This document shows, piece after piece, positions 9,941 through 32,075 of a stretch of 64,000 nt of DNA (the first letter of the stretch is position 1; each line of letters starts with the position of its first letter). The notes beneath the pieces are model-generated. The model searched no databases. It was not told the DNA's origin and worked only from the letters and a program-made list of their open reading frames with translations. The stretch comes from a plasmid. The position numbers were made by a program, and so were the translations under genes. The DNA is taken from sequence record NZ_CP013725.1; one strand, given 5' to 3'.

Positions 9941-9963
9941 TCGGACACACTTTTTTCTACACG

Positions 9964-10637: not shown

Positions 10638-10834
10638 CAGATTAAATGAACTAGGCAATTCTGGAAGAAAAGCTATTTTTCCAGGATTGCTTTTTTTGTT
10701 GCAATCCGATTCGAGGTGCTTAGAAACGATAAAAGAGAACTTTCTAAACTTGATGTCAGTCAATTAATTACTTAGGCAATTATCTTATACTGTGTTTATC
10801 AATAAAAGAGAAATTAAATTTGGAGGGAAAAAGC

Positions 10835-12739: not shown

Positions 12740-13038
12740 GAATAAATTAGAGGATGAACATAGGCACTGATTGTCCCTTATTCAAAAAATAGTTTTTTGC
12801 GTATTGGGAAAAGTCTTTAATGGGTCAGAAACTTAAAAAGTTTTTGATCCTTTTTTAATTTCTCATTTAATAGCTCTTTCAGCAACTCAATTAATTAGGT
12901 CAGAAAGTATTTCATATAGCGGTCAGCAGAGTATGCCTTAACGCCCAATTGTCTAATAAAAGTTTCAGCCAAATAGAAAATGGACGAATAAGTTGCGCAT
13001 ATAATAATTGTTTTATAGTGGGCAAAAAATACGGGTTG

Positions 13039-13121: not shown

Positions 13122-14978
13122 TTAATTATTTTTTTCTATATACCATTTTTTTGATATCTTAGCACTATTACCATCTGTATTAGGTATTGCCTCACCAAAT
13201 GAAGTTAACATGGGAATTCGTATTGCTGAGCCGAAAACGAGAGCATGCCCTGTTTGTAAATAAGTCAAACGATCAATTGTGTCTCTATCAATATATGGAA
13301 CCATTCGAGATATATAATTTAAATCATCAGGATTTTGAATTCTATGAACGATAAAATTACTACATTGAGAAACTACCGTTTTTGATAAATCACTAGGTCT
13401 TTGTGTAGAAACACACATCAAAAATCCATATTTTCTACCTTCTTTTGAAATTCTTTGAAATATATCAAAATCATATGTCCCATGTGAAAGAGTATTATCT
13501 TTTATATACCTATGTGCTTCTTCAATAAATAAGTTTATAGGTTTATCTGCTTTTTTTTGATGCCCTTTTTGATAATCTAAAATTATTTTAGCTAGCACTC
13601 TTATAAGAACCTCCGCCATTGAATCATTCATAGCACTTATATCTATGTTTACAATATTACTATTGTCCAAAAACTTCTCAAAAAAAGATTCTTTATTTTT
13701 AAATTGAGTTACATTGAAAATCCTACTAAAAGATGACTCTACTAAACTTTGCATTCTAGAAACTAATGGCGCGGTGTATTCTTGTACTCTTTGACTATTC
13801 AAGCTTCCTTCATATAAAATGGCAAATTTCATAGCAGTTAAAAAATTATTAGGTGAAAAACGTACTAATTGGTCAAATTTAAATTCTTCCATTTGAGTAA
13901 AATTTACATATGATTGTAAAAAAGAGATGATTTTTTCAATATCGTCCATTTTTCCATAGGCCACATTTATACTATTTCTTAAAGTTTTTTCATCATTGAT
14001 TTTTGTGTCTAGATTAATGCTCTGAGTTTGGAAGTTTGATAATAATGAACTTACTTTATCTGCTTTAGATGGGGATGATTCAGAGCTATTTAACATAGCT
14101 ATGATAGTAGAAGCTAGTATATGGTTCTTAGCATCTTCAGAATTACTATTATCCGAAAAGAAAATTTGAACTACTTCCATTGTTTTCCTTAAAACTGGAA
14201 TTTGGGTTTTTTCTGATGCATTTAGCAAAATAGCCCAATCATCTACTGATAACAGCCAAATTGGAACTTCAAAATTATCCTCGTCTGAAAGTGGTTTAAT
14301 GAATTGGCACTTAATATCATTATTATTTTCTTCTATTATTTTAGAAAAAGATTTTTGATATTCACCATTGGAATCAATCAGGATTAATCTAGATCCAAGT
14401 GCTGAATAATTTGACTTTAAATATATATTTTGAATTATTCTTGCAATGGAGTTAGACTTACCTGCTCCAGTATTTCCAAATATAGCCGAATGGTAGCCAA
14501 AAAACTTATCTAAATCTACTTTCACATCGTATTCTGAGAATAAAACTGATTTTCCTAATGAAAATGTTGCAACTCTAGTATTACCATCAGAAACGTTAAT
14601 TTCAGAATTCTTTACATCTAACATGATATCTAATTCTTCGTTTGTAACAATGTGAACTTCAGAATAAAGTAGAGGCATTTTAGATACCCCAAAAAAGAAC
14701 TCATTATTAGTAATCTCACCTATCAATCTTAAAGAAATAACTCTACTAGCATTAGGTTTAGCTAACGGAGCACTGGAAATATGTCGAGAACTTTCGGCAG
14801 ATAATACTTCGGCTATCAGAGTTCGACCTAATTCGTAAATTGATACATATGTTCCAATCTCTCCAACAAACCTAGTTTCATCCAATGTATTTATATAATT
14901 ATCTATATTATTAAATACTTCTGCTAATACTATGGAATTTTTAATAAGGATTAGCCTTCCAATAGAACGATTATTCAT
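13122..14978 (-). CDS. herA: HerA-like (DUF87/FtsK-HerA superfamily) ATPase. Second gene of a SIR2-HerA anti-phage module
   Basis: 618 aa. Walker A FGNTGAGKSN. Walker B with EAH (INLFIEEAHRY). C-terminal VSTQRPSDL motif. RBS GGAGGAAAT. The start ATG overlaps the stop of the upstream SIR2 gene by 8 nt (ATGAATAA). Confidence 0.85.
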   Translation of the reverse strand: MNNRSIGRLILIKNSIVLAEVFNNIDNYINTLDETRFVGEIGTYVSIYELGRTLIAEVLSAESSRHISSAPLAKPNASRVISLRLIGEITNNEFFFGVSKMPLLYSEVHIVTNEELDIMLDVKNSEINVSDGNTRVATFSLGKSVLFSEYDVKVDLDKFFGYHSAIFGNTGAGKSNSIARIIQNIYLKSNYSALGSRLILIDSNGEYQKSFSKIIEENNNDIKCQFIKPLSDEDNFEVPIWLLSVDDWAILLNASEKTQIPVLRKTMEVVQIFFSDNSNSEDAKNHILASTIIAMLNSSESSPSKADKVSSLLSNFQTQSINLDTKINDEKTLRNSINVAYGKMDDIEKIISFLQSYVNFTQMEEFKFDQLVRFSPNNFLTAMKFAILYEGSLNSQRVQEYTAPLVSRMQSLVESSFSRIFNVTQFKNKESFFEKFLDNSNIVNIDISAMNDSMAEVLIRVLAKIILDYQKGHQKKADKPINLFIEEAHRYIKDNTLSHGTYDFDIFQRISKEGRKYGFLMCVSTQRPSDLSKTVVSQCSNFIVHRIQNPDDLNYISRMVPYIDRDTIDRLTYLQTGHALVFGSAIRIPMLTSFGEAIPNTDGNSAKISKKWYIEKNN

Positions 14979-16164
14979 TTATATTTCCTCCGTTTTCCCT
15001 TATTTCTGAGAAAACTTTGTTTATTTGTTCAGAAATTTTTTGTTTTTCCTGTTCTTCGCTTGGGATAGCCGGCATTAACTTCTCAACAAAATTATTAAAA
15101 TAATGAATTTTATTTTTTGAATTAATGATAGTAATTCTACTATCATCCATATTTTTAATTTTCCCTATATTGGTCTCTATTTTCTCATCAGCATTATTTT
15201 CGTATTCAGTATCGCCTAAGATGATTAGCCTAAAAGAAGGAATTGATAAATTATTTAGTATTATTCGATTGATGTGATCGTCGCCAAAGCTGTAACCTAG
15301 TGTAATTAATACACTATTCTTTTGGGTTAAATTATCTTGAAACGATCGCATTAAATCTGTATAGGGTACCATTAAGGTACTTCTATCTTTTAAAGGTGTT
15401 GGATATATCATCACATTCTCAAGAGAACTTTTATCTATTTCTTTCATGGATATTTCATATATCTTATCTTCGCTTTTTTTCCATGAAATAGATCCGTGAA
15501 TTTTATACAAATTATAAAAATGATCAACTCTGTTCCATACATCCTTATTTAAATTCATATTGTCCACATACATATATCTATACATATTTGGGTTGAATGT
15601 TCTCATATATGAACCAGTAAATCCGCTATTATAAATAAAATTCAATTCATCCAATGCACGCTCATTATACATATCATAATTTGTAGTTACTATATTAATT
15701 GGACTTTTTCTACTTGAAGAAATTGTTTTTAAATAAAGCTTTTTGTATATTTCAGATAGCTCCTTGCAATCCATGCCTTGAGTAATTTTATCTGTAATGA
15801 ATTTTTTAACAATATTAATCTTTTTATCAATTTCTTTATCAATTTCCTTAATATGATTTACTTGTCTGAGCGCATTCATGAAATCCATCAGTTCTTCAAG
15901 ATTTCGGTTAACTTTATCTTCTATACCAACACCCAATATTTCGAAATCTGGGTTTGATTTTATGAAGTCTTTAAAAAGACCAGCCATTGTAGATATAGCT
16001 GCTTCTTCATTATCGATATAAAAGCTAGAGCAACCTGCACCCATTAATATAGAAAGATTTTCCATTTGTAATGCTTGAGCAATGGTTTTTTGTACATCAC
16101 TTAGAGATTTTTTTACTTTATTAGCTCCTTGGTAGTAATTAATTTCTTCATCAATTTGATTCAA
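14971..16164 (-). CDS. SIR2-family (SIR2_2/DHS-like) NAD-binding protein, predicted NADase effector of a SIR2-HerA defense module
   Basis: GAGCS (GAGxS) Rossmann motif, TTNYD motif and catalytic-type HGS (KIHGSISW). Start chosen at TTG 16164, 6 nt after GGAGGGA. The ORF track extends to 16182. Confidence 0.85.
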   Translation of the reverse strand: MNQIDEEINYYQGANKVKKSLSDVQKTIAQALQMENLSILMGAGCSSFYIDNEEAAISTMAGLFKDFIKSNPDFEILGVGIEDKVNRNLEELMDFMNALRQVNHIKEIDKEIDKKINIVKKFITDKITQGMDCKELSEIYKKLYLKTISSSRKSPINIVTTNYDMYNERALDELNFIYNSGFTGSYMRTFNPNMYRYMYVDNMNLNKDVWNRVDHFYNLYKIHGSISWKKSEDKIYEISMKEIDKSSLENVMIYPTPLKDRSTLMVPYTDLMRSFQDNLTQKNSVLITLGYSFGDDHINRIILNNLSIPSFRLIILGDTEYENNADEKIETNIGKIKNMDDSRITIINSKNKIHYFNNFVEKLMPAIPSEEQEKQKISEQINKVFSEIRENGGNINE

Positions 16165-16432
16165 ACCTAATCCCTCCAACAACTATAAATACTTTATAAC
16201 AATTATATCATTATTAAATACATTTTTTCCTATAGTTCTTTTTTTAGTCAGGCGAATAAGTTATGTATTAGAATAGAAGGAAGTAGAAATCTATGCTCTA
16301 ATTTAGTGAAAAATTTGTGGACCCTGCTATAATGATACTCGATTAACATAGGTAGATAAACGTGAATCGAGTATTTTTTACTTGAAACGGCAAGACAAAT
16401 TTGGCTTAAGCACAACGCGGCTAATAAGATAT

Positions 16433-17011
16433 TTATTCGCTCTGATTTTTGTTGAGATATCGATAAATCGTTGTTCGCGAAACATTCCAGCGTGCAGCAA
16501 TTGTTTTAATGGGAGTTCCATTATCAATGAGGGTTCGCATTAAAGCCAGATCTTCTGCTGTTAGTTTTTCCGGCCGGCCACCAAAACGACCTCTTGCCCG
16601 AGCAGCTTCTCTTCCTGCTGCAGAACGTTCTAAAATCAAATTCCGTTCAAATTCTGCGAAAGCAGCGAACAAATGAAAGATAAGCTGGCCGGTGGAACTG
16701 GATTTATTCATCGTAATATTTTCTTGGAGACTATGAAAACTGATCCCATTATCATTTAGTTGATTGACAACACGAATAAGATCTTCCATATTCCTACCTA
16801 ATCGATCTAAACGCCAAACCACAATCGTATCTCCAGAACGACAAAAATCAATCGCAGCGTCCAATCCAGGGCGTTTACTTTTTGCGCCACTGATATGATC
16901 CTGGAAAATTTTCTCACAACCATCTTTTTCTAAACTATCGATTTGTAAATCTAAATTTTGTAAGCCAGTTGAAACTCGTGCATACCCAATTTTCAATTTC
17001 GTCACATCCAT
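16433..17011 (-). CDS. Serine recombinase/resolvase (Sin/Res/Bin type)
   Basis: N-terminal YARVSTxxQ catalytic serine motif and C-terminal HTH (RTTIYRYLNK). Confidence 0.9.
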   Translation of the reverse strand: MDVTKLKIGYARVSTGLQNLDLQIDSLEKDGCEKIFQDHISGAKSKRPGLDAAIDFCRSGDTIVVWRLDRLGRNMEDLIRVVNQLNDNGISFHSLQENITMNKSSSTGQLIFHLFAAFAEFERNLILERSAAGREAARARGRFGGRPEKLTAEDLALMRTLIDNGTPIKTIAARWNVSRTTIYRYLNKNQSE

Positions 17012-17271: not shown

Positions 17272-19317
17272 TTGTCGAATAACAAAAAACACCAAAATCA
17301 TGAGCATCATAGTCATCAAGAACATGAAAATCACACTAGTCATGGTAATCATGAACATCACCATCATGGAAATTTTAAAAGTAAATTCTTTATTTCTTTG
17401 ATTTTTGCGATACCGATTATTATTTTATCGCCCATGATGGGAGTTAAATTACCGTTTCAAATTTCATTTACAGGGTCAGATTGGATTGTATTAATTCTTG
17501 CTACAATTTTATTCTTTTACGGAGGAAAGCCATTTTTATCAGGGGCTAAAGATGAAATTTCAACTAAAAAACCTGGAATGATGACGCTTGTTGCTCTAGG
17601 TATTTCAGTAGCTTATATTTATAGTTTATACGCCTTTTATATGAATAACTTCAGTGGTTCATCCACACATACAATGGACTTTTTCTGGGAATTAGCGACT
17701 TTAATTTTAATCATGTTATTAGGTCATTGGATTGAAATGAACGCAGTAGGTAATGCAGGCAATGCACTGAAGAAAATGGCAGAACTTTTACCTAATACTG
17801 CAGTGAAGCTGATTGATAACAATCAACGAGAAGAAGTTAAAATATCAGATATTCATATTGACGATATTGTGGAAGTCAGAGCAGGCGAAAGTATACCCAC
17901 AGACGGAATCATTGTTCAAGGAGAAACATCAATTGACGAATCATTAGTTACTGGCGAATCAAAAAAAGTTCATAAAACTCATAATGATGATGTTATTGGA
18001 GGTTCAATTAATGGTTCAGGTACAGTACAAGTTAAAGTGACTGCTACGGGTGAAAATGGCTACCTATCTCAAGTTATGGGTCTTGTTAACCAAGCTCAAA
18101 ACGATAAGTCAAAAGCTGAACTCCTCTCTGATAAAGTCGCAGGTTATTTGTTTTACTTTGCAGTAAGTATTGGCCTGATTTCATTTATTGTATGGATGCT
18201 TATTCAAAACAACGTCGATTTCGCACTTGAACGGCTAGTAACCGTATTAGTCATTGCTTGTCCACATGCATTAGGCTTGGCAATACCTTTAGTTACAGCA
18301 CGTTCTACCTCTATAGGCGCACATAATGGTTTAATCATTAAAAACAGAGAATCTGTAGAAATCGCACAACACATTGATTACATCATGATGGATAAAACTG
18401 GGACACTAACTGAAGGTAACTTTTCAGTGAATCACTATGAAAGTTTTACAGACGAGTTAAATAATGAAGAAATATTGAGTCTATTTGCTTCATTAGAAAG
18501 TAATTCTAATCATCCACTTGCCACTGGTATTGTTGATTTTGCTAAAGGCAAAAATATTTCATATGCTACTCCTCAAGAAGTTAATAATATTCCAGGTGTA
18601 GGCTTAGAAGGCACAGTTGATAATAAAAAACTCAAAATAGTGAATGTTTCTTATCTCGATAAAAGCAATTTTGATTATAATAAAGAACAATTTACGAATC
18701 TCGCTCAACAAGGGAATTCTATTAGTTATCTAATTCATGACCGACAAGTTATTGGTATTATCGCACAAGGCGATAAAATTAAAGAAAGTTCAAAACAAAT
18801 GGTTTCGGATTTATTATCGAGAAACATTACGCCAGTCATGCTTACAGGCGATAATAAAGAAGTGGCACAAACAGTGGCTGAAGAATTAGGTATTAGTGAT
18901 GTCCACGCGCAATTGATGCCCGAAGATAAAGAAAGTATTATCCAAGATTATCAAAGCAATGGTAGCAAAATCATGATGGTTGGTGATGGTATCAATGATG
19001 CGCCAAGCCTTATTAGAGCAGATATTGGTATGGCAATTGGCGCAGGGACAGATGTAGCTATTGAATCGGGGGATGTCATACTCGTTAAAAGTAATCCTTC
19101 TGATATTATCAATTTTTTGTCCCTTTCAAAAAATACGATGAAAAAAATGGTTCAAAATTTATGGTGGGGCGCAGGATATAACGTGATTGCAGTTCCTCTT
19201 GCAGCTGGTATATTAGCTTCTATTGGTTTAATATTATCACCTGCTGTGGGTGCAATACTTATGTCTTTAAGTACGATCATCGTAGCAATTAATGCATTTA
19301 CATTAAAATTAAAATAA
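17272..19317 (+). CDS. copB: Copper-translocating P1B-3-type ATPase with His-rich N-terminus, CopB-like
   Basis: His-rich tract [30 protein letters not shown] motif ([10 protein letters not shown]), DKTGTLT and [13 protein letters not shown] start 7 nt after AGGAGG. About 30% GC, as in staphylococcal DNA. Confidence 0.9.
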
Positions 19318-19331: not shown

Positions 19332-20492
19332 ATGTATAAAAAAATGTTCACAATTTTAATTACGTTATTTTCTATAATGTTTATGGTTCCTAATGATACT
19401 TTTGCAGAAGGTAAGCACAACATGATGGACATGAAAGAAAATGATCAAAAGCGAAATGATATGATGGATATGAAAAGTCATGACGAAAGAAAAAATTTGA
19501 ATTCTTCACAAGGAAAAAATGAAATAACATTTCCCAAAGTTTTAGATCCTAAAAAAGATAACAATGGTTATAAAAGTTATACATTAAAAGCGCAGAAAGG
19601 AAAGACAGAATTTTACAAAGGTAATTTCTCTAACACTTTAGGATACAATGGAAATTTACTTGGGCCAACTTTAAAATTAAAAAAAGGAGATAAGGTTAAA
19701 ATTAAGTTAGTCAACAACTTAGATGAAAATACAACATTTCATTGGCATGGGTTAGAAATAGATGGAAAAGTGGATGGAGGCCCTTCTCAAGTTATAAAAC
19801 CAGGAAAAGAAAAAACAATAAAATTTGAGGTTAAACAAGAGGCTGCTACATTATGGTATCATCCCCACCCCTCCCCAAATACAGCTAAACAAGTTTATAA
19901 TGGTTTATCAGGGTTATTATATATAGAGGATGACAAAAAGAATAATTATCCTAGCAATTATGGGAAAAATGATTTGCCTATAATAATCCAAGATAAAACA
20001 TTTGTATCTAAAAAATTAAATTATACAAAAACGAAAGATGAAGATGGTACTCAAGGTGATACAGTCCTTGTGAATGGGAAAGTAGATCCTAAATTAACAA
20101 CAAAAGAAGGAAAAATACGTTTGAGACTTTTAAATGGCTCCAATGCTCGGGATTTAAATCTTAAGCTAAGTAATAATCAAAGTTTTGAATATATTGCTTC
20201 AGAAGGCGGCCATTTAGAAAAGACTAAAAAGTTAAAAGAAATTAATTTAGCTCCTTCAGCAAGAAAAGAAATAGTAATAGATTTATCTAAAATGAAAGAA
20301 GAAAAAGTCAATCTTGTTGATAATGATGAAACAGTAATTTTACCAATTATTAACAAAGAAAAAAGTACTAACAAAGACACTACTCCAAAAGTAGATAAAA
20401 AAATCAAATTAGAAGGTATGGACGGGGTCCCAAGCGCCTACGGGAAATTTGTATCGATAAGGATTACAAATTCCCGTAATATCAACGTTTGA
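19332..20492 (+). pseudogene. mco: Multicopper oxidase, 3'-truncated. The reading frame runs into the transposon terminal inverted repeat at 20424
   Basis: Signal peptide, HWHG and WYHPHP copper-site motifs present. C-terminal HCH / HxxH type-1 copper motifs absent. The last ~23 codons are encoded by the Tn3-family IR. Confidence 0.8.
20424..20461 (+). repeat. Tn3-family left terminal inverted repeat (38 bp)
   Basis: GGGG....ACGxTAAG-type Tn3-family IR, adjacent to the tnpA 3' end. Confidence 0.85.
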
Positions 20493-20499
20493 CGACTCT

Positions 20500-23415
20500 C
20501 TATTTTTCTATGTTTAATTTTCTCAACCTCTTGGGAATAGATAACAAATCAAATTTGTATTCACCAAGAAACGTAATATGCTCCCAATTAATAGGAGAAA
20601 TATGGTTCATATAGTTGGTTACTTCTGGATCTATTTTCACTAGATAATCATAGGCTTCTTGTAAATAGACGGCGTTCCATATACTAATAGCATTTATTAA
20701 AACATTTAGTGCACTTGCACTTTGAAGTTGCCGACGAATATCACGTTCCATGAATTTACCTCGGCGACCAAAAAATAGTTCTCTTGCCAAAGCATTTACG
20801 GCTTCCGTTTTATTCAAACCATGGGTAATCTTACGTCTTAAGCTATCATCTGTCACATAATCTATCATGAAAATACTCTTCTCAATCCGTCCCAATTCTC
20901 TTAAAGCGGTAGCTACCTTATTTTTTCGTGCGTAAGAACCTAGCTTTCCTAAAATTAGCGAACTTGAGACTTTACCAGTTTGAATGGAATAAGCGATTCG
21001 TTTAATTTCTTCGTAACTTTCATCAATGGTTTTTATATTGATCCTACCACTGATGAGCCCTAATAAATCAGGGTATTCTGAAGTTGGCTTTATAGAAAAT
21101 AATTGAGACTTTTTTATATTCCTAATACGGGGTTCAAAATGAAACCCTAGTAAAGCCGTCATACCAAACACTTGATCTGTATAACCATTTGTGTCAGTGA
21201 AGTGTTCTTCAATATCTAAATCTGTTTCGTGGTAAAGCAAGCCATCTAATGTATGAGTCGCTTCTCTCGTGTTGGTCGAAACAACTTCAACATGATGTGA
21301 GGTATTTCTGTCATTGATTGACCGAATCATTGTGGCGCCTTTCTCTAAGCTTTTATAATGTGGATTCACGTCAGCCTTAATGGCGGATACACCTACTGGT
21401 ACACGCATTCCATCGGAAGCACTCGTTTTACCTTCTCCCCAAAAATCAGCTATAGGAATTCCTAATTGAAAATTAACCAAAATAGATTGGGCACAGGTTA
21501 AGGCTTCTTTATAAAACCGCCATTGTTTAGTATTCGCCAATTGAGGATAAGTAATTCCGGGGGTGGATTGGGCCATTTTCTCAAGCCCAATATTCATTCC
21601 TAATCCTAATAAAGTGGCAAAAACAATTTTCTTTTCTCGTTCATTTGGCGGATTTCCAGTTGAATCATGGATAAATTCTTGCGAAAATTGAGTCCAGCTA
21701 TCCACTTCTATTAATAGGTCACTTAATCTTATTTTGGGAATCATTGAATAAAGTTTTTTTCTATATTCCTCTGCTTCATCTGGTGTAACTTTCTCCAATT
21801 TTTTTAGCACCATTTTGGCTGAACTTTTGCCAGAATTCGAATAATATTGTAGTTGTGAGTCCAATATTGCGCCCCTAGAAGTCAAATAATCATCAAATGT
21901 ATCTGGAATAGTGAGTGAGTTAACGCAAGCATCGGAACTGATTAAGTAATCATCAATGTTTCGATGGGCTAAGCTTCCTTCTACCGAAATATTTCCTGAT
22001 CTAATATTATTTTTTAACTCTGTGAACGCTACCAACTCGTAGAAGGATCGGTCTATTTTTCCTTCTTCAGGTTGAACAAGACGTTCCCATTTTTTACTCA
22101 CAAATTCAATGGATGTGTTTGCTGGTATTTTCCGTTTACCATCGTTTTTTAACTCATTTATTTGAGTAAGCGCTGTAAGAATTGGTTGTGCAGATGAGGT
22201 TGCTTTAAACGAGAGTATTTTTAAAAGCATTGGGGTATATCTTCTAAGGTAAGTGGCTTTATTTCTCACCATTTCTAAATATCCGTGATTTTTCTTACCA
22301 GTAATTCGTTTAGCGTCTTCTCCATCTTGGATTAAGTCATGCCAGGGGATAACTCGTTCTATTTCGTCAAAAGGATTACTGTCGTTGTCTTTTGCAAAAT
22401 GAAGTGCATCAATCAGAGACGCATAATGTTCTAATTTTTCAGTCGCCAACTTCCCTTTCTCTTTCAACAGTTCTTGCGAATCGTGCATCCCTTTTCGTTT
22501 AATCCCCGCTAAAATCCGGTCATTAATTTCAATGAGCAGATCGATCAGATACTGATGATGATCCACTAAAAAAGCAATGAGTAAGGAATACTTTTTTTCG
22601 AATTCAAAACGAGAAAAATCATAGGCATCGTAATTATCACCTAATCGTGCTAACTGAAGAAATCTATTTCGGTGAATATGCGACACATTGATTGTTCCTA
22701 GTTCAAGAACCGTAATCGTCTCAACTTTTTTGCAAATGGTCATAAAACTCTCTGGATTGGCTTTGCCAGGGATATCTTTTAACCAGGCGAGTTTAGTCAT
22801 CTTCGTTTCTTTATATACTAGAAACAACTCATCTAATTTCTCGATTTGTGTTTCTGTTAGTGAATCCAGAAGAATTGAAAACAGTGTGCTTTCAGCCTTA
22901 TCACGACAATGGCTGATAATGTCTTCTAGTGTCGCTATCGATGGAAAAATAATTCGATTTTGGGTGAGGAAGCCTAATGTTTTTTTCATGAGATAGGTAG
23001 AGTCATCATTTTCTAATGCCAGCTTAATAAGAAATGCTATTAATTGATTGCGTGTGTCGACACTTCCAAAACGCTGATACCTAAATGTTTCTAATATCTC
23101 ATTAAAGTGATTGGCACGTGTGTTCCTATGGGCGTATAAGGCCAGTTCAATTGAGTCAAGATGTAACTGGCGCCTTACATAAGAGATTAAACGGTCTGAT
23201 TGGATGGACCAGTTACTCAACGAACACCCAGGGTATCGTGCCAAGCAGAGCTGAATGGCAAACCCTAACTTATTGATATCCCCTCTGTGTTGGTTGATGA
23301 TATCTAAATCAGAGTCAGAGAAACTGAAATAAGCTTGAAAATCCTCTTCAGATAAGTGATCGACAGAAAGAAGTTGCTCCCGCTGTGCTGCTGTTAAAAT
23401 TTTCTTTAATGCCAT
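20500..23415 (-). CDS. tnpA: Tn3-family transposase TnpA
   Basis: 971 aa, the typical length. DDE-type Tn3 transposase C-terminal region. Gene end lies next to the IR. Confidence 0.9.
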   Translation of the reverse strand: MALKKILTAAQREQLLSVDHLSEEDFQAYFSFSDSDLDIINQHRGDINKLGFAIQLCLARYPGCSLSNWSIQSDRLISYVRRQLHLDSIELALYAHRNTRANHFNEILETFRYQRFGSVDTRNQLIAFLIKLALENDDSTYLMKKTLGFLTQNRIIFPSIATLEDIISHCRDKAESTLFSILLDSLTETQIEKLDELFLVYKETKMTKLAWLKDIPGKANPESFMTICKKVETITVLELGTINVSHIHRNRFLQLARLGDNYDAYDFSRFEFEKKYSLLIAFLVDHHQYLIDLLIEINDRILAGIKRKGMHDSQELLKEKGKLATEKLEHYASLIDALHFAKDNDSNPFDEIERVIPWHDLIQDGEDAKRITGKKNHGYLEMVRNKATYLRRYTPMLLKILSFKATSSAQPILTALTQINELKNDGKRKIPANTSIEFVSKKWERLVQPEEGKIDRSFYELVAFTELKNNIRSGNISVEGSLAHRNIDDYLISSDACVNSLTIPDTFDDYLTSRGAILDSQLQYYSNSGKSSAKMVLKKLEKVTPDEAEEYRKKLYSMIPKIRLSDLLIEVDSWTQFSQEFIHDSTGNPPNEREKKIVFATLLGLGMNIGLEKMAQSTPGITYPQLANTKQWRFYKEALTCAQSILVNFQLGIPIADFWGEGKTSASDGMRVPVGVSAIKADVNPHYKSLEKGATMIRSINDRNTSHHVEVVSTNTREATHTLDGLLYHETDLDIEEHFTDTNGYTDQVFGMTALLGFHFEPRIRNIKKSQLFSIKPTSEYPDLLGLISGRINIKTIDESYEEIKRIAYSIQTGKVSSSLILGKLGSYARKNKVATALRELGRIEKSIFMIDYVTDDSLRRKITHGLNKTEAVNALARELFFGRRGKFMERDIRRQLQSASALNVLINAISIWNAVYLQEAYDYLVKIDPEVTNYMNHISPINWEHITFLGEYKFDLLSIPKRLRKLNIEK

Positions 23416-23418
23416 AAG

Positions 23419-23973
23419 TTAGTTTTTCCTTCCATTAAGATAGCGGTATAGGGTTGTTTTGCTTAGTTTAGAGGCATCAAGAATCTGATTAATTGAATAT
23501 TCCTTACTATCGTACATTTTCAAAGCCAACTCAATTGATTGACTGGCTTTACTTGGTCGCCCCCCTTTTTTTCCACGTGCTCTTGCTGCTTCAAGACCTG
23601 ATTTGGTTCTTTCAATTGTAATATCACGTTCCAACTCTGCTAAACTAGCCATGACTCGGAAAAAGAATCTTCCCATAGAAGTAGAGGTATCAACGTTATC
23701 TTGAATAGAGATAAAATTAACCCCAAGCTCTTCAAACGTTTCTGAAAGCTCAATCAAATGTTTAGTTGAACGTGAAATTCGATCAAGTTTATAAATAACC
23801 ACTGAGTCACCTTCACGTAACCCCTTTATCATGTCTTCCAATTGTGGACGGTCTCGTTTTGAACCCGTCACCTTTTCTTGGAATAGTTTATCGATACCGT
23901 GTTGGGTGAGTGCATCAATTTGCAAATTCAAATTTTGATCCTCTGTACTCACTCGAGCATAGCCAAAAATCAT
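23419..23973 (-). CDS. tnpR: Tn3-family serine resolvase TnpR
   Basis: MIFGYARVSTEDQNL catalytic motif and C-terminal HTH (KTTLYRYL). Start taken at the internal Met. The ORF track extends to 24021. Confidence 0.88.
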   Translation of the reverse strand: MIFGYARVSTEDQNLNLQIDALTQHGIDKLFQEKVTGSKRDRPQLEDMIKGLREGDSVVIYKLDRISRSTKHLIELSETFEELGVNFISIQDNVDTSTSMGRFFFRVMASLAELERDITIERTKSGLEAARARGKKGGRPSKASQSIELALKMYDSKEYSINQILDASKLSKTTLYRYLNGRKN

Positions 23974-24212
23974 AAAAAGCCTCCTTACTATTAATGACTT
24001 AAATGTACCATAACTCATCAATAATTACCATATAGGCACTTTGAAAAAAGAACGAGTTTTGGTACCTGGTTTAGGGCTCAAACGGATGAAAAACAGATGA
24101 ATTCAAAAAGTGCCATAAACGACCATTTAAGGTACTGGTTATAATAGTCAATTGTTATTCAAACGAACACTTGACTATCAGATTGGAACAGAGTATAATC
24201 ACCCCTATAAAC

Positions 24213-24240
24213 ATTCAAGTGTCTCTTTGAGTGTTGGAAG
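24213..24240. promoter_or_regulatory. Putative cad operator: imperfect dyad AACATTCAAGTGTCTCTTTGAGTGTT between a TTGACT-17-TATAAT promoter and the cadC RBS
   Basis: TTGACT at about 24169, then 17 nt, then TATAAT. The dyad overlaps the predicted transcription start, as in CadC-regulated cad operons. Confidence 0.45.
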
Positions 24241-24252
24241 GAGAAACTGAAT

Positions 24253-24612
24253 ATGACTGTAGATATTTGCGAAATTACTTGTATTGATGAAGAAAAAGTA
24301 AAACGGGTGAAGACTGGACTGGAAACCGTAGAAGTTACAACTATCAGTCAAATATTTAAAATTCTGTCTGATGAAACAAGGGTTAAAATTGTGTATGCAT
24401 TACTGACAGAAAATGAACTTTGTGTATGCGATCTAGCTAATATTGTCGAAGCAACAGTTGCCGCTACGTCCCACCATTTACGCTTTTTAAAGAAGCAAGG
24501 GATTGCGAACTATCGAAAAGATGGAAAGCTTGTTTATTATTCTCTTGCGAATGAAAGGGTTAGAGATCGGATAAAACTTATATTACTTAATTTTGAAGGA
24601 GTGGGAGTCTAA
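24253..24612 (+). CDS. cadC: ArsR/SmtB-family cadmium-responsive repressor CadC
   Basis: 119 aa. ELCVCDL metal-sensing motif and HTH ([12 protein letters not shown]). Highly similar in layout and sequence to pI258 CadC. Confidence 0.9.
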
Positions 24613-26747
24613 TGGCAGAAAAGACTGTTTATAGAGTTGATGGATTAAGCTGTACAAATTGTGCGGCCAAATTTGAACGGAATGTAAAAGAAATTGAGGG
24701 TGTAACAGAAGCTATTGTAAACTTTGGCGCATCAAAAATCACGGTAACAGGTGAAGCAAGTATTCAACAAGTTGAACAGGCTGGAGCATTTGAACACTTG
24801 AAAATCATTCCAGAGAAAGAATCTTTTACTGATCCAGAGCACTTTACTGACCATCAATCGTTTATTAGAAAAAATTGGCGATTATTGCTTTCTGGATTAT
24901 TTATTGCAGTGGGGTATGCGTCACAGATCATGAATGGGGAGGACTTTTATCTTACTAATGCACTATTTATTTTTGCAATTTTCATAGGAGGCTATTCTCT
25001 CTTTAAGGAAGGATTCAAAAATTTATTGAAGTTTGAATTTACAATGGAGACACTGATGACAATAGCTATTATTGGAGCTGCTTTCATTGGTGAATGGGCA
25101 GAAGGATCCATTGTGGTGATTCTATTCGCAGTAAGCGAGGCGCTTGAGCGTTACTCGATGGATAAGGCACGACAATCTATTCGTTCCCTAATGGATATTG
25201 CGCCAAAAGAAGCACTTGTGAGACGCTCGGGCACCGACAGAATGGTTCATGTAGATGACATTCAAATTGGCGACATTATGATTATAAAACCTGGTCAAAA
25301 AATTGCGATGGATGGTCACGTTGTGAAAGGTTATTCAGCCGTCAATCAAGCAGCGATTACTGGTGAATCTATTCCTGTTGAAAAAAACATCGATGATTCC
25401 GTTTTTGCTGGAACGTTAAATGAAGAAGGATTGCTTGAAGTTGCGGTCACAAAACGAGTAGAAGATACCACGATTTCAAAAATTATTCACTTAGTTGAGG
25501 AGGCACAAGGTGAACGTGCTCCAGCTCAAGCATTTGTTGATACATTTGCTAAATATTATACGCCAGCCATTATTGTGATCGCCGCACTGATTGCAACAGT
25601 ACCGCCATTGCTGTTTGGTGGAAACTGGGAAACGTGGGTGTATCAAGGGTTATCTGTATTAGTGGTTGGGTGTCCTTGCGCCTTAGTTGTTTCAACTCCT
25701 GTTGCCATCGTCACCGCCATTGGAAATGCAGCTAAAAATGGCGTATTGGTAAAAGGTGGTGTGTATTTAGAAGAAATTGGTGGGCTAAAAGCCATTGCGT
25801 TCGATAAAACTGGTACCTTGACAAAAGGTGTGCCGGTGGTCACTGATTATATTGAACTAACAGAAGCCACAAACATTCAACATAATAAAAACTATATCAT
25901 CATGGCAGCACTGGAACAATTATCTCAACACCCCCTTGCTTCAGCCATTATTAAGTATGGAGAAACGAGAGAAATGGATTTAACTAGTATTAATGTGAAC
26001 GATTTTACATCCATCACAGGAAAAGGGATTAGAGGAACTGTAGATGGTAACACCTATTATGTTGGAAGTCCCGTTCTATTTAAGGAATTACTAGCATCGC
26101 AATTTACTGACTCCATTCATCGACAAGTGAGTGACTTACAACTTAAAGGGAAGACTGCTATGCTTTTTGGAACAAATCAGAAACTGATTTCTATAGTGGC
26201 AGTTGCTGACGAGGTTAGGTCATCCAGTCAACATGTTATTAAACGACTTCATGAGCTGGGGATTGAAAAAACTATTATGTTGACTGGCGATAACCAAGCC
26301 ACAGCGCAAGCAATTGGCCAACAGGTGGGTGTTTCTGAAATAGAAGGTGAGTTAATGCCCCAAGATAAACTAGATTACATTAAACAGTTGAAAATAAACT
26401 TTGGTAAAGTGGCCATGGTTGGAGACGGTATTAATGATGCGCCAGCCCTAGCAGCGGCCACGGTTGGAATTGCAATGGGCGGAGCTGGAACTGACACAGC
26501 CATTGAAACAGCTGATGTTGCCTTAATGGGAGACGACTTACAAAAATTACCTTTCACGGTAAAGTTGAGTAGAAAAACACTCCAAATTATTAAGCAAAAT
26601 ATCACATTTTCCTTGGTCATCAAACTGATTGCTCTTTTGCTAGTCATTCCAGGGTGGTTAACATTATGGATTGCAATTATGGCGGATATGGGTGCGACTC
26701 TTTTAGTCACGTTAAATGGCTTACGATTAATGAAAGTGAAAGATTAA
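24612..26747 (+). CDS. cadA: Cadmium/zinc-translocating P1B-2-type ATPase CadA
   Basis: N-terminal HMA domain ([12 protein letters not shown]), CPC motif ([12 protein letters not shown]), DKTGTLT and [10 protein letters not shown]. Near-collinear with pI258 and Tn5422 CadA. Start overlaps the cadC stop (TAATG). Confidence 0.95.
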
Positions 26748-26834
26748 TTACCGCTATTGTCTAGTTGGTTTTTTGAATTATTCTGAAAGCATTCCTTATT
26801 GTACAAAATAACAGGTGAGATCAAAGGAAATCTC

Positions 26835-26872
26835 CTTATCGATACAAATTCCCCGTTGGCGCTCGGGACCCC
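26835..26872 (-). repeat. Tn3-family right terminal inverted repeat (38 bp)
   Basis: Reverse complement reads GGGGTCCCGAGCGCCAACGGGGAATTTGTATCGATAAG, with 4 mismatches to the left IR. Confidence 0.85.
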
Positions 26873-26881
26873 GCAGTAAGC

Positions 26882-29800
26882 ATGAAGACAGGAAGCAGCA
26901 ACACACGAACAATACCTAAAAAAGTGGAAACTGTAGAAGCATCAGAAGAAATTATTGAGGAATTGACAGAAATGGATTGGCAAGAAGGTGATGAAATACC
27001 TGGACATGTTCGGAATGATACGTTTTTCGTGCATCAGGATAAGGTCTATTATCATCATAATGGGCGAGCAGAAACCGTTGAGGTTTCAAAAGGGATGCAA
27101 GATCGCATTAAAAAGATGTGTCAAGTGCGACAAGCCTTGATAAACATTATTGATTTGCAACTTCGTCCTTCCTACCAAGCAGCTGAACTGGAGAAACGTC
27201 TTTCTGTGCTGAATCAAGTATACGATACCTTTACCGAAAAATATGGTTTTTTTCACGATACATCGAACCAACGTGCTTTCTTTGATGATGATCAGCTGGC
27301 ACTTTTGGAATCTATTGAGATCCAAGAAAAGCCCGGCGTTTATGCGAAAGGGAGAATTTTCAGAGAAGCAACGATTCGTCCAATCATAGAGGTGGAGCGT
27401 GTACAATCAGCAGAAGAAGCATTGCAGCTGTCCCTTAGTAAAAAATTGATAATCGATTTTGAGTATATGCAGCAAATTAGTGGAAAGACACAAGAGATAT
27501 TACTTAAAGAATTAGATGGACTACTATATGAAGATCCGACTTATCATGGTGATCAGCCAAACAAAGGATGGCTATATCGAGATGACTATTTATCTGGAGA
27601 TATTGTAGAGAAACTAGCCCTCGCAAAATCTCGAGAAGAATCCAACTATCAAAAAAATATAGAGGCGCTTAAAAAAGTAATGCCGAAACCACTACAAGCG
27701 AAAGACATTCAATTTCAATTAGGGAGTACTTGGATACCGATTGACATCTATGAGAGGTTCATGTATCAAACATTTGGGACACCTAGTTATTATCAGTTTG
27801 GAACAAATCCAGATATTAAACTGGAATATGCTCGATATAACAACACTTGGCATATCAAGGGAAAAGGGCTAGATAAAGGTTCTATCAAAGCTTCTAGTGT
27901 ATATGGAACAAAAAGAATGAGTGCTTATGAAATATTGGAGTGTTCCCTCAACCTGCAGCAAGTTATTATACGCGATCCTGAAGAGTATTATGATGAGAAT
28001 GGCAATAAAAAAATTAAGTATGTCATTAACCCAAAAGAAACCATGATTGCTAGAGGAAAACAGACGCAGATGAAAAATGCGTTTCAAAAATGGTTATTCC
28101 AAGATAATTTTCGGGCAGATAAGCTGGTTGAAATTTATAATGAGAGGTTCAATCGTGTGGTCCCAAGAAAATATGATGGAAGTCATCTCACTTTTGACAG
28201 CATGAATTCCAGCTGGGAACTTAGACCTCATCAGCGGAATGTCGTGGCAAGGATTATTTACAATGGATCAGCTCTTATGGCTCATGAAGTGGGAGCAGGA
28301 AAGACAGCATCAATGATTGCGGCAGGCATGTATATGAAACAAGCAGGTGCTGTGCAAAAACCGATGTATGTGGTTCCTAATCATTTGACGCAGCAATTTG
28401 CGAATGAGTTTCTTGCTTTGTATCCGTCGGCTAATGTACTTCGAACCACGAAAAAAGATTTTGAGAAAAAGAATCGCCATCGCTTTATATCCAAAATTGC
28501 TACTAACAACTATGACGCCGTAATCATTGGTCATAGTCAGTTTGAAAAAATTCCTTTAAGCAAAGAAAGACAAGCTGACTTTTTACGGAAGGAGCTTACT
28601 TCGATCAGTATCCAAATGAGAGAAGCAGAAGAAAAAGAAGGACGTTCTTTTACAGTGAAAAGAATGGCAGGTTTCCAAAAAAAATTAAGAGAACGTCTGG
28701 AAACTTTGTCTAATAAGGAAAAGAAAGATGATATTTTAGACTTTGAACAGCTAGGAGTAGACTTTTTATTTATCGATGAAGCGCATGTTTATAAAAATCT
28801 TTATACCGTGACAAAGATGAACAACGTGGCAGGGATCAATACATCGCAGAGTCAACGTGCAATGGATATGTTCCAAAAAGTGCAATATATCCAGGAAATG
28901 AATGGAGGGAAAGGTGTCGTGTTTGCGACTGGTACACCAATTAGTAACAGTATGTCTGAGATGTTTACGATGCAGCGATTCTTGCAAAATGATCAGTTGG
29001 AACGAATGGGATTAGATACTTTTGATAGCTGGGCTTCCACATTTGGGGAGGTAATTTCTTCATTAGAAATGACGCCAGAAGGTTCCGGCTACCGTATGCG
29101 TAATCGTTTTGCGAAATTCCATAACCTTCCGGAACTCATGGCCACTTTCCAATCAGTCGCAGATATTCAGACGCATGATATGCTTAATTTGCCTAAACCC
29201 GATTTGAAAAATGGGAAGGCAGAGATTATCGTGAGCGAAATTTCTCCTTATCAGGAACGATTAATGCAAGAGTTCGCAGAACGAGCGGAGATGATTCGTG
29301 CGGGTGTAGTACAGCCATATGAAGATAATATGTTGAAGGTCACTCATGAGGCAAAACTAATGGCGATTGATTCCAGATTACTGGATGAAGCTGCACCGGT
29401 GGATGAAAATGCAAAACTATTCAAGTGTGCCGAAAACGTACACCGAATTTGGGAAGAAACAACCGCACAAAAAAGCACACAAATTATCTTTAGTGATTCA
29501 GGAACGCCGAAAAAAGACGTTTTCAATGTCTACGATGAGATTAAGCATCTTTTAATTGAGAAAGGTATTCCGGCAGACCAAGTTGCTTTTATTCATGACT
29601 GCAATAACGATCAGCAACGAGAAACCTTATTTGAAAAGGTAAGACGCGGAGAGGTTCGTGTTCTTTTGGGAAGTACAGGTAAACTAGGTACAGGTACTAA
29701 TGTTCAAAATAAATTGATTGCTGGCCATCACATCGATTGTCCGTGGAGACCAAGTGATCTTACACAAAGAGATGGTCGTGTCGTAAGACAAGGAAATGAG

Positions 29801-30679
29801 AATGATGAGGTCCAGCTGTATCGATATGTTACGAAAGGGACATTCGATAGTTACTTGTGGCAAATACAGGAACAAAAACTCAAATATATTTCTCAAGTCA
29901 TGACAGGGAAAAGTATTTCGAGATCTTGTGATGATCTGGATGAAACGGTTCTATCAGCGGCAGAAGTAAAAGCAATTGCCACAGATAATCCTTTATTAGC
30001 AGAAAAAATGTCGGTCGATAATGATATCACTCGTCTGCAGATCATGCGAAGCAGCTGGGAAACAGAACGATTAGACATGCAAAAGAAAATTGATACGATT
30101 CTTCCTGATGCGATCAATCAAAATAAAAATCAGCAAATGAATATCCAAGAAATGATACTGCTTGTTCAAAACTATCCATTACCCAAAAAAGATGGAAAGC
30201 CGGTCTTTGAAATGGAGATCGATGGCGCCATTTATCAAGGTCGCAAGGAAGTCGCAGAAATGATGGATGAGAAGGTAAGCCAAACGGACTTTAAAGAAGT
30301 GGACCAAGTTGAGATAGGGAGATATCGGGGACTGAAAGTTACTGTCCATAAAGATGTACAGTACGAAAAAAAGATTGTTCTTTCCTCAGATAATTACTCT
30401 GTTCACATGCGCTATACTTTAGAGGGTGGAACTGGAAACACGGTGCGGATCAGCAATCAATTGAGCGAGCTTCCCAAACAGCTGACGAGTTTAAACGAAC
30501 AGTTAGAAAATATGGAAGTCAATCTTCAAATGGCGAAGCAAGAAATCCATCTTCCTTTTGAAGAAGATGAAAAACTACAAAAGCTGCTTGCGAGACAAAC
30601 AGAGATTAATACATCCTTAGAATTGGAAAATTTAAGTAAGCCTTCTATTCTTGAAAAAGAAGAGGTTATTGAACGATGA
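26882..30679 (+). CDS. SNF2/DEAD-like superfamily-2 helicase domain protein. Probably the helicase half of a plasmid methylase-helicase giant protein, with its 5' end truncated at the transposon end
   Basis: Motif I HEVGAGKTASM, motif II FIDEAHVYKN, motif VI TQRDGRVVRQGN. The ATG lies only 10 bp from the transposon IR and no RBS is visible. Confidence 0.75.
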   Translation: MKTGSSNTRTIPKKVETVEASEEIIEELTEMDWQEGDEIPGHVRNDTFFVHQDKVYYHHNGRAETVEVSKGMQDRIKKMCQVRQALINIIDLQLRPSYQAAELEKRLSVLNQVYDTFTEKYGFFHDTSNQRAFFDDDQLALLESIEIQEKPGVYAKGRIFREATIRPIIEVERVQSAEEALQLSLSKKLIIDFEYMQQISGKTQEILLKELDGLLYEDPTYHGDQPNKGWLYRDDYLSGDIVEKLALAKSREESNYQKNIEALKKVMPKPLQAKDIQFQLGSTWIPIDIYERFMYQTFGTPSYYQFGTNPDIKLEYARYNNTWHIKGKGLDKGSIKASSVYGTKRMSAYEILECSLNLQQVIIRDPEEYYDENGNKKIKYVINPKETMIARGKQTQMKNAFQKWLFQDNFRADKLVEIYNERFNRVVPRKYDGSHLTFDSMNSSWELRPHQRNVVARIIYNGSALMAHEVGAGKTASMIAAGMYMKQAGAVQKPMYVVPNHLTQQFANEFLALYPSANVLRTTKKDFEKKNRHRFISKIATNNYDAVIIGHSQFEKIPLSKERQADFLRKELTSISIQMREAEEKEGRSFTVKRMAGFQKKLRERLETLSNKEKKDDILDFEQLGVDFLFIDEAHVYKNLYTVTKMNNVAGINTSQSQRAMDMFQKVQYIQEMNGGKGVVFATGTPISNSMSEMFTMQRFLQNDQLERMGLDTFDSWASTFGEVISSLEMTPEGSGYRMRNRFAKFHNLPELMATFQSVADIQTHDMLNLPKPDLKNGKAEIIVSEISPYQERLMQEFAERAEMIRAGVVQPYEDNMLKVTHEAKLMAIDSRLLDEAAPVDENAKLFKCAENVHRIWEETTAQKSTQIIFSDSGTPKKDVFNVYDEIKHLLIEKGIPADQVAFIHDCNNDQQRETLFEKVRRGEVRVLLGSTGKLGTGTNVQNKLIAGHHIDCPWRPSDLTQRDGRVVRQGNENDEVQLYRYVTKGTFDSYLWQIQEQKLKYISQVMTGKSISRSCDDLDETVLSAAEVKAIATDNPLLAEKMSVDNDITRLQIMRSSWETERLDMQKKIDTILPDAINQNKNQQMNIQEMILLVQNYPLPKKDGKPVFEMEIDGAIYQGRKEVAEMMDEKVSQTDFKEVDQVEIGRYRGLKVTVHKDVQYEKKIVLSSDNYSVHMRYTLEGGTGNTVRISNQLSELPKQLTSLNEQLENMEVNLQMAKQEIHLPFEEDEKLQKLLARQTEINTSLELENLSKPSILEKEEVIER

Positions 30680-30845: not shown

Positions 30846-31100
30846 ATGGCGCGATTTGAAGCGGAACCAGATGTTAAAATCCGGGTCAATATCCTGGGTA
30901 TATGTGAAAAATATAATATATCAATGAGTGAGCTTTCCAAAATAGCAGACATCGATCTAGGAAAATTAATTGCTTTGTCGAGAGATGAACGACAACGTGT
31001 ACAACTTGCTCACTTAGAACGCATTTGTCAATCACTGCATATTCGTGATGCCAGAGAACTGTTATTAATTGAAGTGATCAATGAGGAGGAGCAAGGGTAA
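30846..31100 (+). CDS. XRE/Cro-type helix-turn-helix transcriptional regulator
   Basis: 84 aa. HTH-like ISMSELSKIADIDLGKLIALSRDERQRVQLAHLERICQSL. RBS AAAGGAACGGAG. Confidence 0.6.
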   Translation: MARFEAEPDVKIRVNILGICEKYNISMSELSKIADIDLGKLIALSRDERQRVQLAHLERICQSLHIRDARELLLIEVINEEEQG

Positions 31101-31103
31101 ATT

Positions 31104-32075
31104 GTGAAAACATTGCGAGAAATAAAAAAGGAAAAACAATCTGTAATGATTATTTTAGCAGAGTTGTACGAAGAACATGATCTATCCTTTCCAGACCATA
31201 AAGCAGGAAGCAAGATAGGCTGTCCTGTTTGTGATCAGATAGTAACATGTACCAGCGTTATTAAGCGATTAGAAAACGAAATAGCTACTTACGGTAAAAG
31301 TCAGAGAAGCGAACCAGGCAGTGCAAAGAATAAAGTATTGGAAGAAAATAAGATTCTACATTCGGAAAATATGGAAGATATGGAACGTGTTTTACATTGG
31401 GAACGTGTATTTACAAAACGAATGTATCAGGATTTGACAAGTGCCGGCTGGACTTCTGCAGAGATTCGAGATAACTATGATATTCCTGATTTTTTCTTTA
31501 AACGTTGGAAATATAAACATGAACTTTATGTGGCTGTTCCACTGATATATCGCGTAAAGACAGTGGATGAACGGGTATTCTTTTATAAAGTTTTTTTGGA
31601 GAAAGATATTTTTTTTCTTACTCACTTAGATAATTTACTTATAGATAGATACGATCGCGTGGAAAAAGAGAACTGGACGGACATTTATTTTTGGCATCAA
31701 GGGGCATATCGAACACTTCATCAAGTGATCCTAAATAGTGAGTTCGGAAAAATTGGTGAAACTGTTGTACGGCTTCATAATGTTCAATATTGTAAGCGAA
31801 AAGAAGCAGAGCAAGTGATCTTTTATGATGGGGATAATAAGGCAGATATTGATGCTTTTTGTGAGCCTCATGAGGTTGTAGCATTAAAGAAGAAAAAGAA
31901 GTTACACTTTTCTACGAATTACGGCTCCGTAACACTGGGACCGGGTGAATTTTTAGTACGAGATATGACTAATCGGTTTTATCGGTATACAAAGGATGAA
32001 TTTCATCAAATGTATGAACTGACAGAAAATAAGCATGATATTGGATTAATCAGTGAGGCAACTTATCATGGATAA
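31104..32075 (+). CDS. Hypothetical 323-aa protein translationally coupled to the upstream HTH regulator
   Basis: GTG start 4 nt after the regulator stop. CxxC pair (CPVCDQIVTC). No other recognisable motif. Confidence 0.5.
   Translation: MKTLREIKKEKQSVMIILAELYEEHDLSFPDHKAGSKIGCPVCDQIVTCTSVIKRLENEIATYGKSQRSEPGSAKNKVLEENKILHSENMEDMERVLHWERVFTKRMYQDLTSAGWTSAEIRDNYDIPDFFFKRWKYKHELYVAVPLIYRVKTVDERVFFYKVFLEKDIFFLTHLDNLLIDRYDRVEKENWTDIYFWHQGAYRTLHQVILNSEFGKIGETVVRLHNVQYCKRKEAEQVIFYDGDNKADIDAFCEPHEVVALKKKKKLHFSTNYGSVTLGPGEFLVRDMTNRFYRYTKDEFHQMYELTENKHDIGLISEATYHG

Follow-up and report, generated by a model that had tools for sequence, protein, structure and literature searches.

Unmatched target sequences at the two ends of a Tn5422 copy on a Listeria plasmid and their probable origin

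How does an intact transposon come to lie with its two ends in unrelated genes and without a target-site duplication? The question is raised by a 64,000-nucleotide stretch of plasmid sequence (NZ_CP013725.1; hereafter the window), all of which is Listeria plasmid DNA, and in which the cadmium-resistance transposon Tn5422 (20424–26872) cuts short a multicopper oxidase gene (mco) on its left and adjoins the interior of a gene for an SNF2-related helicase on its right. An earlier note, made from the letters of the window, had listed a transposon-mediated deletion, recombination between two transposon copies and one-ended transposition as possible explanations. The analysis presented here points to a two-step history in which Tn5422 probably entered mco first, producing a duplication of TGGAC, and in which a later transposase event joined its right inverted repeat (IR) to the sequence GCAGT in the SNF2 gene. 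The shortlist therefore included the explanation favoured here, and its one-ended member is not needed, since both IRs are intact.

The element is Tn5422, the name being used as in papers on pLMR479a-type plasmids. It has the canonical length of 6,449 bp and carries tnpA, tnpR, cadC and cadA between 38-bp IRs, the left at 20424–20461 on the + strand (GGGGTCCCAAGCGCC..., in full GGGGTCCCAAGCGCCTACGGGAAATTTGTATCGATAAG) and the right at 26835–26872 on the − strand (...CGCTCGGGACCCC), complete up to its final base. The two repeats, which the earlier note had placed at these positions, match at 35 of 38 positions, and by the repeat finder their complementarity stretches to 41 nt at 93 per cent (20423–20463 and 26833–26873). 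A degenerate IR pattern recovers just these 2 sites in the 64-kb window and 0 in 100 shuffles. An opening GGGG, a length of ∼38 bp and the passenger genes cadC–cadA (cadA1C1) are features of the Tn5422/Tn917 group of the Tn3 family. The 971-aa transposase gene tnpA (20500–23415, − strand) gives a full-length profile match to DDE_Tnp_Tn3 (E=9e-138) with an N-terminal DUF4158, and tnpR (23419–23973, − strand) encodes a serine resolvase with resolvase and HTH_7 domains, 184 aa as called (the mechanical open reading frame, ORF, extends to 24021). On the + strand follow cadC (cadC1; 24253–24612), an ArsR/SmtB-type repressor gene with an HTH_5 domain and a 100 per cent AMRFinder match on identical DNA, and cadA (cadA1; 24612–26747), which encodes a 711-aa cadmium-exporting P-type ATPase with HMA, E1-E2_ATPase and Hydrolase domains. 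The cadAC, tnpA and tnpR genes are intact, and a putative res site is expected in the tnpR–cadC intergenic region (23974–24252). In its set of tnpA–tnpR and cadC–cadA, its IRs (∼40 bp), its length (∼6.4 kb) and its Listeria plasmid host, the element agrees with the Tn5422 of the Tn917/Tn3 family described earlier (Lebrun, Audurier & Cossart 1994) and in these features does not differ from it; only the right target, nucleotide 2245 of the SNF2 gene, is particular to the present plasmid lineage.

The two junction sequences can be read directly from the window. The 5-bp flanks are TGGAC on the left (20419–20423) and GCAGT on the right (26873–26877), and re-inspection brought to light no hidden repeat, so that the difference seen by the earlier note stands and the window holds no 5-bp target-site duplication. 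The absence of the duplication is a secondary condition and no argument against placing the element in the Tn3 family, because a sequence-identical copy in pLM5578 (CP019168.1 / NC_013767.1) has TGGAC on both sides. In that plasmid Tn5422 occupies the same position in mco, with 0 differences over 6,449 bp and a perfect TGGAC duplication, and to its right lie the 3' end of mco and then ydhK; excising Tn5422 together with one TGGAC restores the intact Staphylococcus aureus sequence. By this sequence comparison, the mco::Tn5422 of pLM5578 has the form expected of a canonical Tn3-family insertion and of the ancestral state, which is thus directly visible, and the left flank in the window is one of the two repeats made by that first insertion, its partner being present in pLM5578 and not here. 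Since the ancestral, TGGAC-duplicated insertion survives in pLM5578, the left junction of the window is old and the right junction derived. The two plasmids share Tn5422, the left junction with copB and the truncated mco, and a further boundary discussed below, at which the 5' part of the SNF2 gene meets an IS21-family remnant. Of the two, only pLM5578 still has both copies of TGGAC together with the 3' end of mco and ydhK, and its replication region is only 92–94 per cent identical to that of the window.

The truncated oxidase gene, mco' (19332–20492, + strand), consists of 364 native codons up to 20423 followed by 22 codons and a stop read through the IR, and the earlier note was right that the C-terminal copper site is lost. 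Over its 1,092 native nucleotides it shows 100 per cent identity with the mco carried by S. aureus plasmids, and the S. aureus copB–mco operon (ATCC 12600 plasmid CP035102.1; SAP078A) has the same recombinase–copB–mco order. At the level of sequence, then, the copB–mco segment is staphylococcal, its mco is derived from S. aureus, and the proposed joining of such a segment to the plasmid backbone is borne out. Intact homologues do not stop at the break, for the S. aureus Mco has 477 aa and the 3' end of mco follows the transposon in pLM5578. Relative to the S. aureus gene the Listeria copy is without codons 365–477, so that of the four copper-binding His motifs HWH (137) and HPH (177) are kept, and HIH (408) and HCH (458) are cut off; Cu-oxidase_2, at residues 350–476 of the S. 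aureus protein, is missing from the window ORF, where Cu-oxidase_3 alone remains. With half of its predicted copper ligands gone, mco' should be inactive as an oxidase. The copB–mco'–IR junction recurs at ∼100 per cent identity in ∼90 Listeria plasmids in PLSDB, and 12 have kept the mco 3' end.

On the other side of the element, the final base of the right IR abuts codon 749 of a gene for a 2,016-aa (6,051-nt) SNF2-related protein, and the flank GCAGT, presumed to be the Tn5422 target, corresponds to nt 2245–2249 of the intact gene. The two ends accordingly lie, as had been proposed, in unrelated targets, an mco of S. aureus origin and a plasmid SNF2 gene. The latter is intact in the sister plasmids pLIS14, pLM6179, pLI42 and pLM1686, where it is annotated 'SNF2-related protein', and the part in the window shows 0 mismatches to the pLIS14 allele. 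What remains here (nt 2245–6051; 26873–30679, + strand) is the 3' remnant of an ArdC-like/N6-methylase/SNF2-helicase gene with SNF2-rel_dom, ResIII and Helicase_C domains. A start codon at ATG 26882, 9 nt past the IR, is the in-frame internal Met752, and the resulting 1,265-aa ORF (residues 752–2016) carries SNF2/ResIII at its residues 446–641 and Helicase_C at 868–971 (Pfam). No Shine-Dalgarno sequence was found upstream of ATG 26882, in keeping with the earlier description of a 1,265-aa helicase that starts just past the right IR without a ribosome-binding site.

That this helicase lacks its N-terminal domain, as was also claimed, is true of the 1,265-aa ORF and not of the plasmid, on which nt 1–1486 of the gene survive ∼33 kb away, beyond the window, on the far side of a cargo island; only nt 1487–2244 are lost. 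Set against the intact genes, therefore, the junctions lack mco codons 365–477 and SNF2 nt 1487–2244. An Eco57I-type methylase match at residues 567–654 of the intact protein (Pfam) falls within the lost segment. The methylase and the ArdC-like N-terminus accordingly do not occur here in one polypeptide, the ArdC-like 495 codons forming a separate ORF 33 kb away. When the missing 748 N-terminal residues served as a homology query, only distant N6-methylase relatives came back and no Listeria fragment, a result that confirms the methylase character of this part of the protein. The 5' part of the gene is directly located as a 500-aa ORF that runs into the left end (TGTAAAGGGCC...) of an IS21-family element. 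This junction, in which the SNF2 5' part, a remnant IS21' and an IS6 element follow one another, is old and widespread; PLSDB has 59 plasmids with it, and their annotation calls the gene fragment 'ArdC-like ssDNA-binding protein'. Because the gene was already broken at nt 1486 by the IS21-family element, it is a 33-kb island, and not Tn5422 alone, that sits inside it; ∼33.1 kb of cargo stand in place of 758 bp of the SNF2 gene, methylase core included.

Beyond the SNF2 remnant lie genes for a helix-turn-helix regulator and a 323-aa hypothetical protein (30846–32075, + strand), just as they do in every relative with an intact SNF2 gene, which shows that past the right IR the ordinary plasmid backbone continues in its usual order. 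Terminator and promoter predictions near the right junction did not exceed chance; as no + strand terminator is predicted between cadA and the SNF2 remnant, read-through transcription is possible. To judge from these sequences, mco' and the two pieces of SNF2 are in all likelihood non-functional relics, and translation from Met752 is hypothetical.

Transposons often cause misassembly, and no record in PLSDB spans the junction of the right IR with SNF2, so it might be asked whether that junction is a chimeric join made by assembly at a repeated transposon. This idea deserves next to no credence. The exact 1,265-aa product has been recorded in 1,703 blocks of independent public assemblies, the longest contig among them measuring 86.6 kb, the same arrangement is seen in contigs of different projects and in one complete 86,632-bp plasmid, and with one Tn5422 copy only there is no repeat to collapse. 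The complete plasmid (CP169694.1) is 100 per cent identical to window 49930–64000. A circle rebuilt from four chained pieces (the window, the CP169694.1 locus, a Logan contig with 100 per cent overlap with that locus, and a deletion-variant contig) came to 86,632 bp, equal in length to CP169694.1, and short-read contigs cross the whole transposon with unique DNA on either side. Tn5422 is single in the window and in the rebuilt circle. A second, inverted copy beyond the window, as might be left by an intramolecular inversion, was likewise considered and is excluded by the rebuilt circle and the spanning contigs.

Among related plasmids, the left junction is fixed and the right end variable. The same left junction is accompanied by at least five different sequences at the right IR, which is complete to its final base every time, and these alternative junctions can again be read directly. 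The right IR abuts the mco 3' end in pLM5578 and SNF2 nt 2245 in the present window; in pLM1686 it meets, in unchanged orientation, the site that corresponds to window position 33007, in pLIS14 the reverse complement of window position 55506, within a type IV secretion system (T4SS) gene, and in a group of 57.5-kb plasmids DNA beside a PemK/MazF toxin–antitoxin module. The island and transposon are 99.9–100 per cent identical between plasmids whose replication regions differ by 6–8 per cent, which means that the cargo moves between backbones and that the right IR is its sharp edge.

Two of these relatives bear further description. The junction of pLM1686 lies 6.1 kb further along than that of the window, as it would after a second adjacent deletion in a window-like arrangement; pLM1686 must be a recombinant, because another SNF2 allele lies intact at a different place in the same plasmid. 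In pLIS14 (MZ043154.1 24217–57370) the same 33-kb island is inverted relative to the window, with a truncated NlpC/P60 gene on one side and the T4SS gene on the other, and SNF2 is intact. Derivation of the window plasmid from pLIS14, or the reverse, by a single inversion was rejected, since each retains the gene that is broken in the other (SNF2, and the T4SS gene at 55506).

A lone copy without a duplication, its junction old at one end and new at the other, is the signature of replicative transposition of the Tn3 type, and strand transfer by a transposase is favoured because the right junction lies exactly at the final base of a complete IR. Under this scheme Tn5422 would first have inserted canonically into the staphylococcal mco on a Listeria plasmid cargo island, generating the TGGAC duplication, and a later event catalysed by the Tn5422 transposase would have linked the right IR to GCAGT, a 5-bp target within the SNF2 gene, the left IR keeping its junction with mco. 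Two routes may be envisaged for the second step. In an intramolecular attack (route A), all DNA between the right IR and the target would be deleted. In an attack on a second, related plasmid (route B), a cointegrate would form, and recombination between long direct repeats of the backbone, rather than resolution at res, would then drop the second Tn5422, the mco 3' end with ydhK, and the redundant backbone. Whichever route was followed, the product would hold Tn5422 once and without a target duplication, would have lost the 3' end of mco, and would carry an SNF2 gene starting at nt 2245. That a transposase made the right junction we infer from this pattern, and the two routes are proposals. 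Adjacent deletions and unresolved cointegrates of Tn3, gamma-delta, Tn917 and Tn21-family elements show the same pairing of one old with one new junction, the same absence of duplication and the same one-sided junction series; in contrast to the laboratory series of Tn3-type elements, the series here is pieced together from natural plasmids, which makes no difference in principle. Tn5422 itself reportedly undergoes intramolecular replicative transposition that generates deletions, and its original description is said to have already noted flanks without direct repeats and to have ascribed them to replicative rearrangements.

The same final structure would result from two independent insertions, one in mco and one in SNF2 at GCAGT on the same or another plasmid, followed by recombination between the two copies, whether homologous or by TnpR between res sites. 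Sequence-identical copies of Tn5422 across plasmids would offer ample homology as well as a res site, Listeria plasmids are mosaic, and IS21 copies at different sites also seem to have swapped flanks. This last point is illustrated by the left end of the island. The IS21 copy that bounds it, outside the window, retains only its left IR and 150 istA codons and is cut by the IS6 element. Intact copies with TGT...ACA IRs, internal repeats, istA and istB (2,164–2,178 bp; right end ...GGCCCTTGACA) occur in 65 PLSDB plasmids. The pLIS14 island has the same IS21'/IS6 left end joined to the truncated NlpC/P60 gene, and intact IS21 copies occupy the identical NlpC/P60 position in pCFSAN074382 and pLI42. 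An intact IS21 at this site makes the change of left flank explicable by recombination within IS21, and the flank was probably swapped within ∼530 bp of IS21 homology, an active IS21' copy being unnecessary. For Tn5422 itself, recombination between two separate insertions is a serious rival on account of the identical outcome, but the less likely one. Neither a simple SNF2::Tn5422 insertion nor a left-IR junction at this site was found in 72,556 PLSDB plasmids or in the GTDB representatives, and the scheme needs one more independent transposition than the replicative route; being formally the reverse of cointegrate resolution, it is also hard to separate from route B.

Several observations weigh against a replicative origin of the right junction. 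The reciprocal junction, in which SNF2 ...AAATGGGCAGT would be joined to the left IR GGGGTCCCAAGCG, is present neither in PLSDB nor in the GTDB species representatives, and the junction patterns as a whole were not found in GTDB representative genomes. Route A requires an antecedent with the island, then the mco 3' end, then SNF2 from nt 1487 onward, and no such plasmid was found. On present data routes A and B cannot be told apart. The single-nucleotide differences of the SNF2 halves are uninformative, most of those to pLIS14 belonging to a private pLIS14 cluster at nt 1140–1284; an origin of the halves from different plasmids, suggested by 16 against 0 mismatches to pLIS14, was dropped on account of that cluster and of two mismatches that came from alignment spill-over into the IS21 end. 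Lastly, the right junction lies no more than 9 bp from an IS21 junction of the type seen in pLI100, a closeness that the replicative model leaves unexplained.

In pLI100 (NC_003383.1) and ∼9 other plasmids an intact IS21 abuts SNF2 nt 2253 at its left junction, the sequence running ...GCAGTAAGC up to the junction and TGTAAAGG beyond it. In the window Tn5422 abuts nt 2245, the IR being followed directly by GCAGTAAGC, so that the retained flanks of the two junctions overlap by 9 bp (window 26873–26881). By a rough estimate, for three breakpoints in a 6,051-nt gene, the chance of such closeness is ∼1 per cent. That the overlap is no coincidence, and reflects either a hot spot for two unrelated transposases or a single insertion of a hybrid-ended island with a 9-bp duplication, we regard as very unlikely. 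The latter version, in which a composite island extending from the IS21 left end to the Tn5422 right IR would have entered SNF2 once, duplicated the 9 bp GCAGTAAGC and afterwards lost its left flank by erosion to nt 1486, is highly improbable in itself. It would account for the overlap of exactly 9 bp between the flanks of the pLI100-type IS21 (nt 2253) and the window Tn5422 (nt 2245), and it draws on the same rough figure of ∼1 per cent for three breakpoints so near by chance. However, a transposase that would act on an IS21 end and a Tn3-family IR together is not known. IS21-family elements duplicate 4–8 bp. A 9-bp duplication thus fits neither element, that of Tn5422 being 5 bp, nor can the overlap be explained as a 5-bp duplication next to a 4-bp one. 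The two junctions were not found together in any plasmid, and the IS21 copy of pLI100 has unrelated DNA on its other side.

A missing target duplication would also be expected of one-ended transposition, of which Tn3-family elements are capable, and a break by illegitimate recombination might have ended at the IR by chance. These are extremely improbable as sources of the junction. Both IRs are intact and the element has its canonical 6,449 bp, and the other boundary is the old IS21 junction of 59 PLSDB plasmids rather than a variable donor end; illegitimate recombination would rarely meet the exact terminal base, yet all five different junctions lie there. The later attack by the Tn5422 transposase, with the left junction inherited from the insertion in mco, therefore remains the probable account.

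The rebuilt circle also places the locus in a wider plasmid context. pLMR479a (HG813248) has been described as an 86,652-bp plasmid with 'a Tn5422 copy' and a '∼10 kbp region of 14 genes' from other Firmicutes, and its type, 'virtually identical 86 kbp' plasmids, as present in 39 of 53 plasmid-bearing ST8 strains worldwide. Size, gene order, abundance, one Tn5422 beside copper genes and a ∼10-kb foreign Firmicutes segment all fit, so that the window plasmid, judged by size, gene order and abundance, is pLMR479a-like. Upstream of the SNF2 5' ORF the backbone of the rebuilt circle carries T4SS, NlpC/P60, MobL relaxase and Fic genes. The island then runs from IS21' and IS6 through an NADH-peroxidase-type oxidoreductase gene, gbuC, metal ATPase genes, an Enterococcus-like segment, SIR2–HerA, a recombinase gene, copB and mco' to Tn5422.

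The copper gene next to mco', copB (17272–19317, + strand), encodes a copper P-type ATPase with a His-rich N-terminus, in a short variant with a 681-aa gene call, and is annotated accordingly on identical DNA; the mechanical ORF starts at ATG 17188, and TTG 17272, preceded by AGGAGG, is the likelier start. The window copy is without a 51-bp (17-aa) repeat in the His-rich N-terminal region (∼17290–17360) that is present in pLM1686, pLIS14, pLM5578 and the 57.5-kb plasmids, and Tandem Repeats Finder reported nothing in the copB 5' region. Two CopB variants have been reported previously (Chmielowska et al. 2021) and match the short copB of the window and the long copB of its sister plasmids.

Elsewhere in the island, the genes for SIR2 (403 aa) and HerA/DUF87 (618 aa) are neighbours (window 13122–16182, − strand; PADLOC models, E=5e-99 and 1e-154) and form an anti-phage defence pair of the SIR2–HerA type beside the recombinase gene (16433–17011). 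The segment at ∼2200–13000, flanked by an IS6/ISS1N copy (2240–2920), encodes proteins that are Enterococcus- or Lactococcus-like by identifiers and best DNA matches, among them FetB, Dps, a Crp/Fnr regulator, a heavy-metal ATPase and a cupin; it is missing from the 57.5-kb plasmids and probably corresponds to the ∼10-kbp foreign Firmicutes region of pLMR479a. A deletion variant (GCA_016597995.1, JADKWU010000009.1) is without window 1411–24404, from the interior of a cation P-type ATPase gene to the interior of cadC; most of the island and tnpA/tnpR are gone from it, and cadA, the right IR and the IR/SNF2 junction are retained. On the backbone side, a Y-family DNA polymerase gene (IMS domains; UvrX-like) at window 35522–36874, between a recombinase gene and the parA/repA module, is ∼92 per cent identical to its pLM5578 homologue.

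The rearranging activity of Tn5422 and the truncation of mco have already been published (Chmielowska 2021 among the sources). No description of this particular SNF2 junction was found, but the process behind it is known and the case an ordinary one; its practical relevance is modest, and current understanding is unchanged. There are nonetheless consequences for how these plasmids are read. Surveys list and assay 'multicopper oxidase' as a stress gene of Listeria plasmids, and on this very common plasmid type mco' is a C-terminally truncated remnant unable to bind the full copper set, to which phenotypes should not be ascribed. The annotated 1,265-aa 'SNF2 helicase' and 500-aa 'ArdC-like protein' are likewise two pieces of one gene minus its methylase core, and the split may affect an anti-restriction or establishment function in conjugation. 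Taken with its relatives, the locus, with one fixed and one variable Tn5422 junction, offers a natural example of how Tn5422, IS21 and IS6 reshuffle and resize Listeria plasmids and so carry a 33-kb cargo of metal-resistance and defence genes between backbones.

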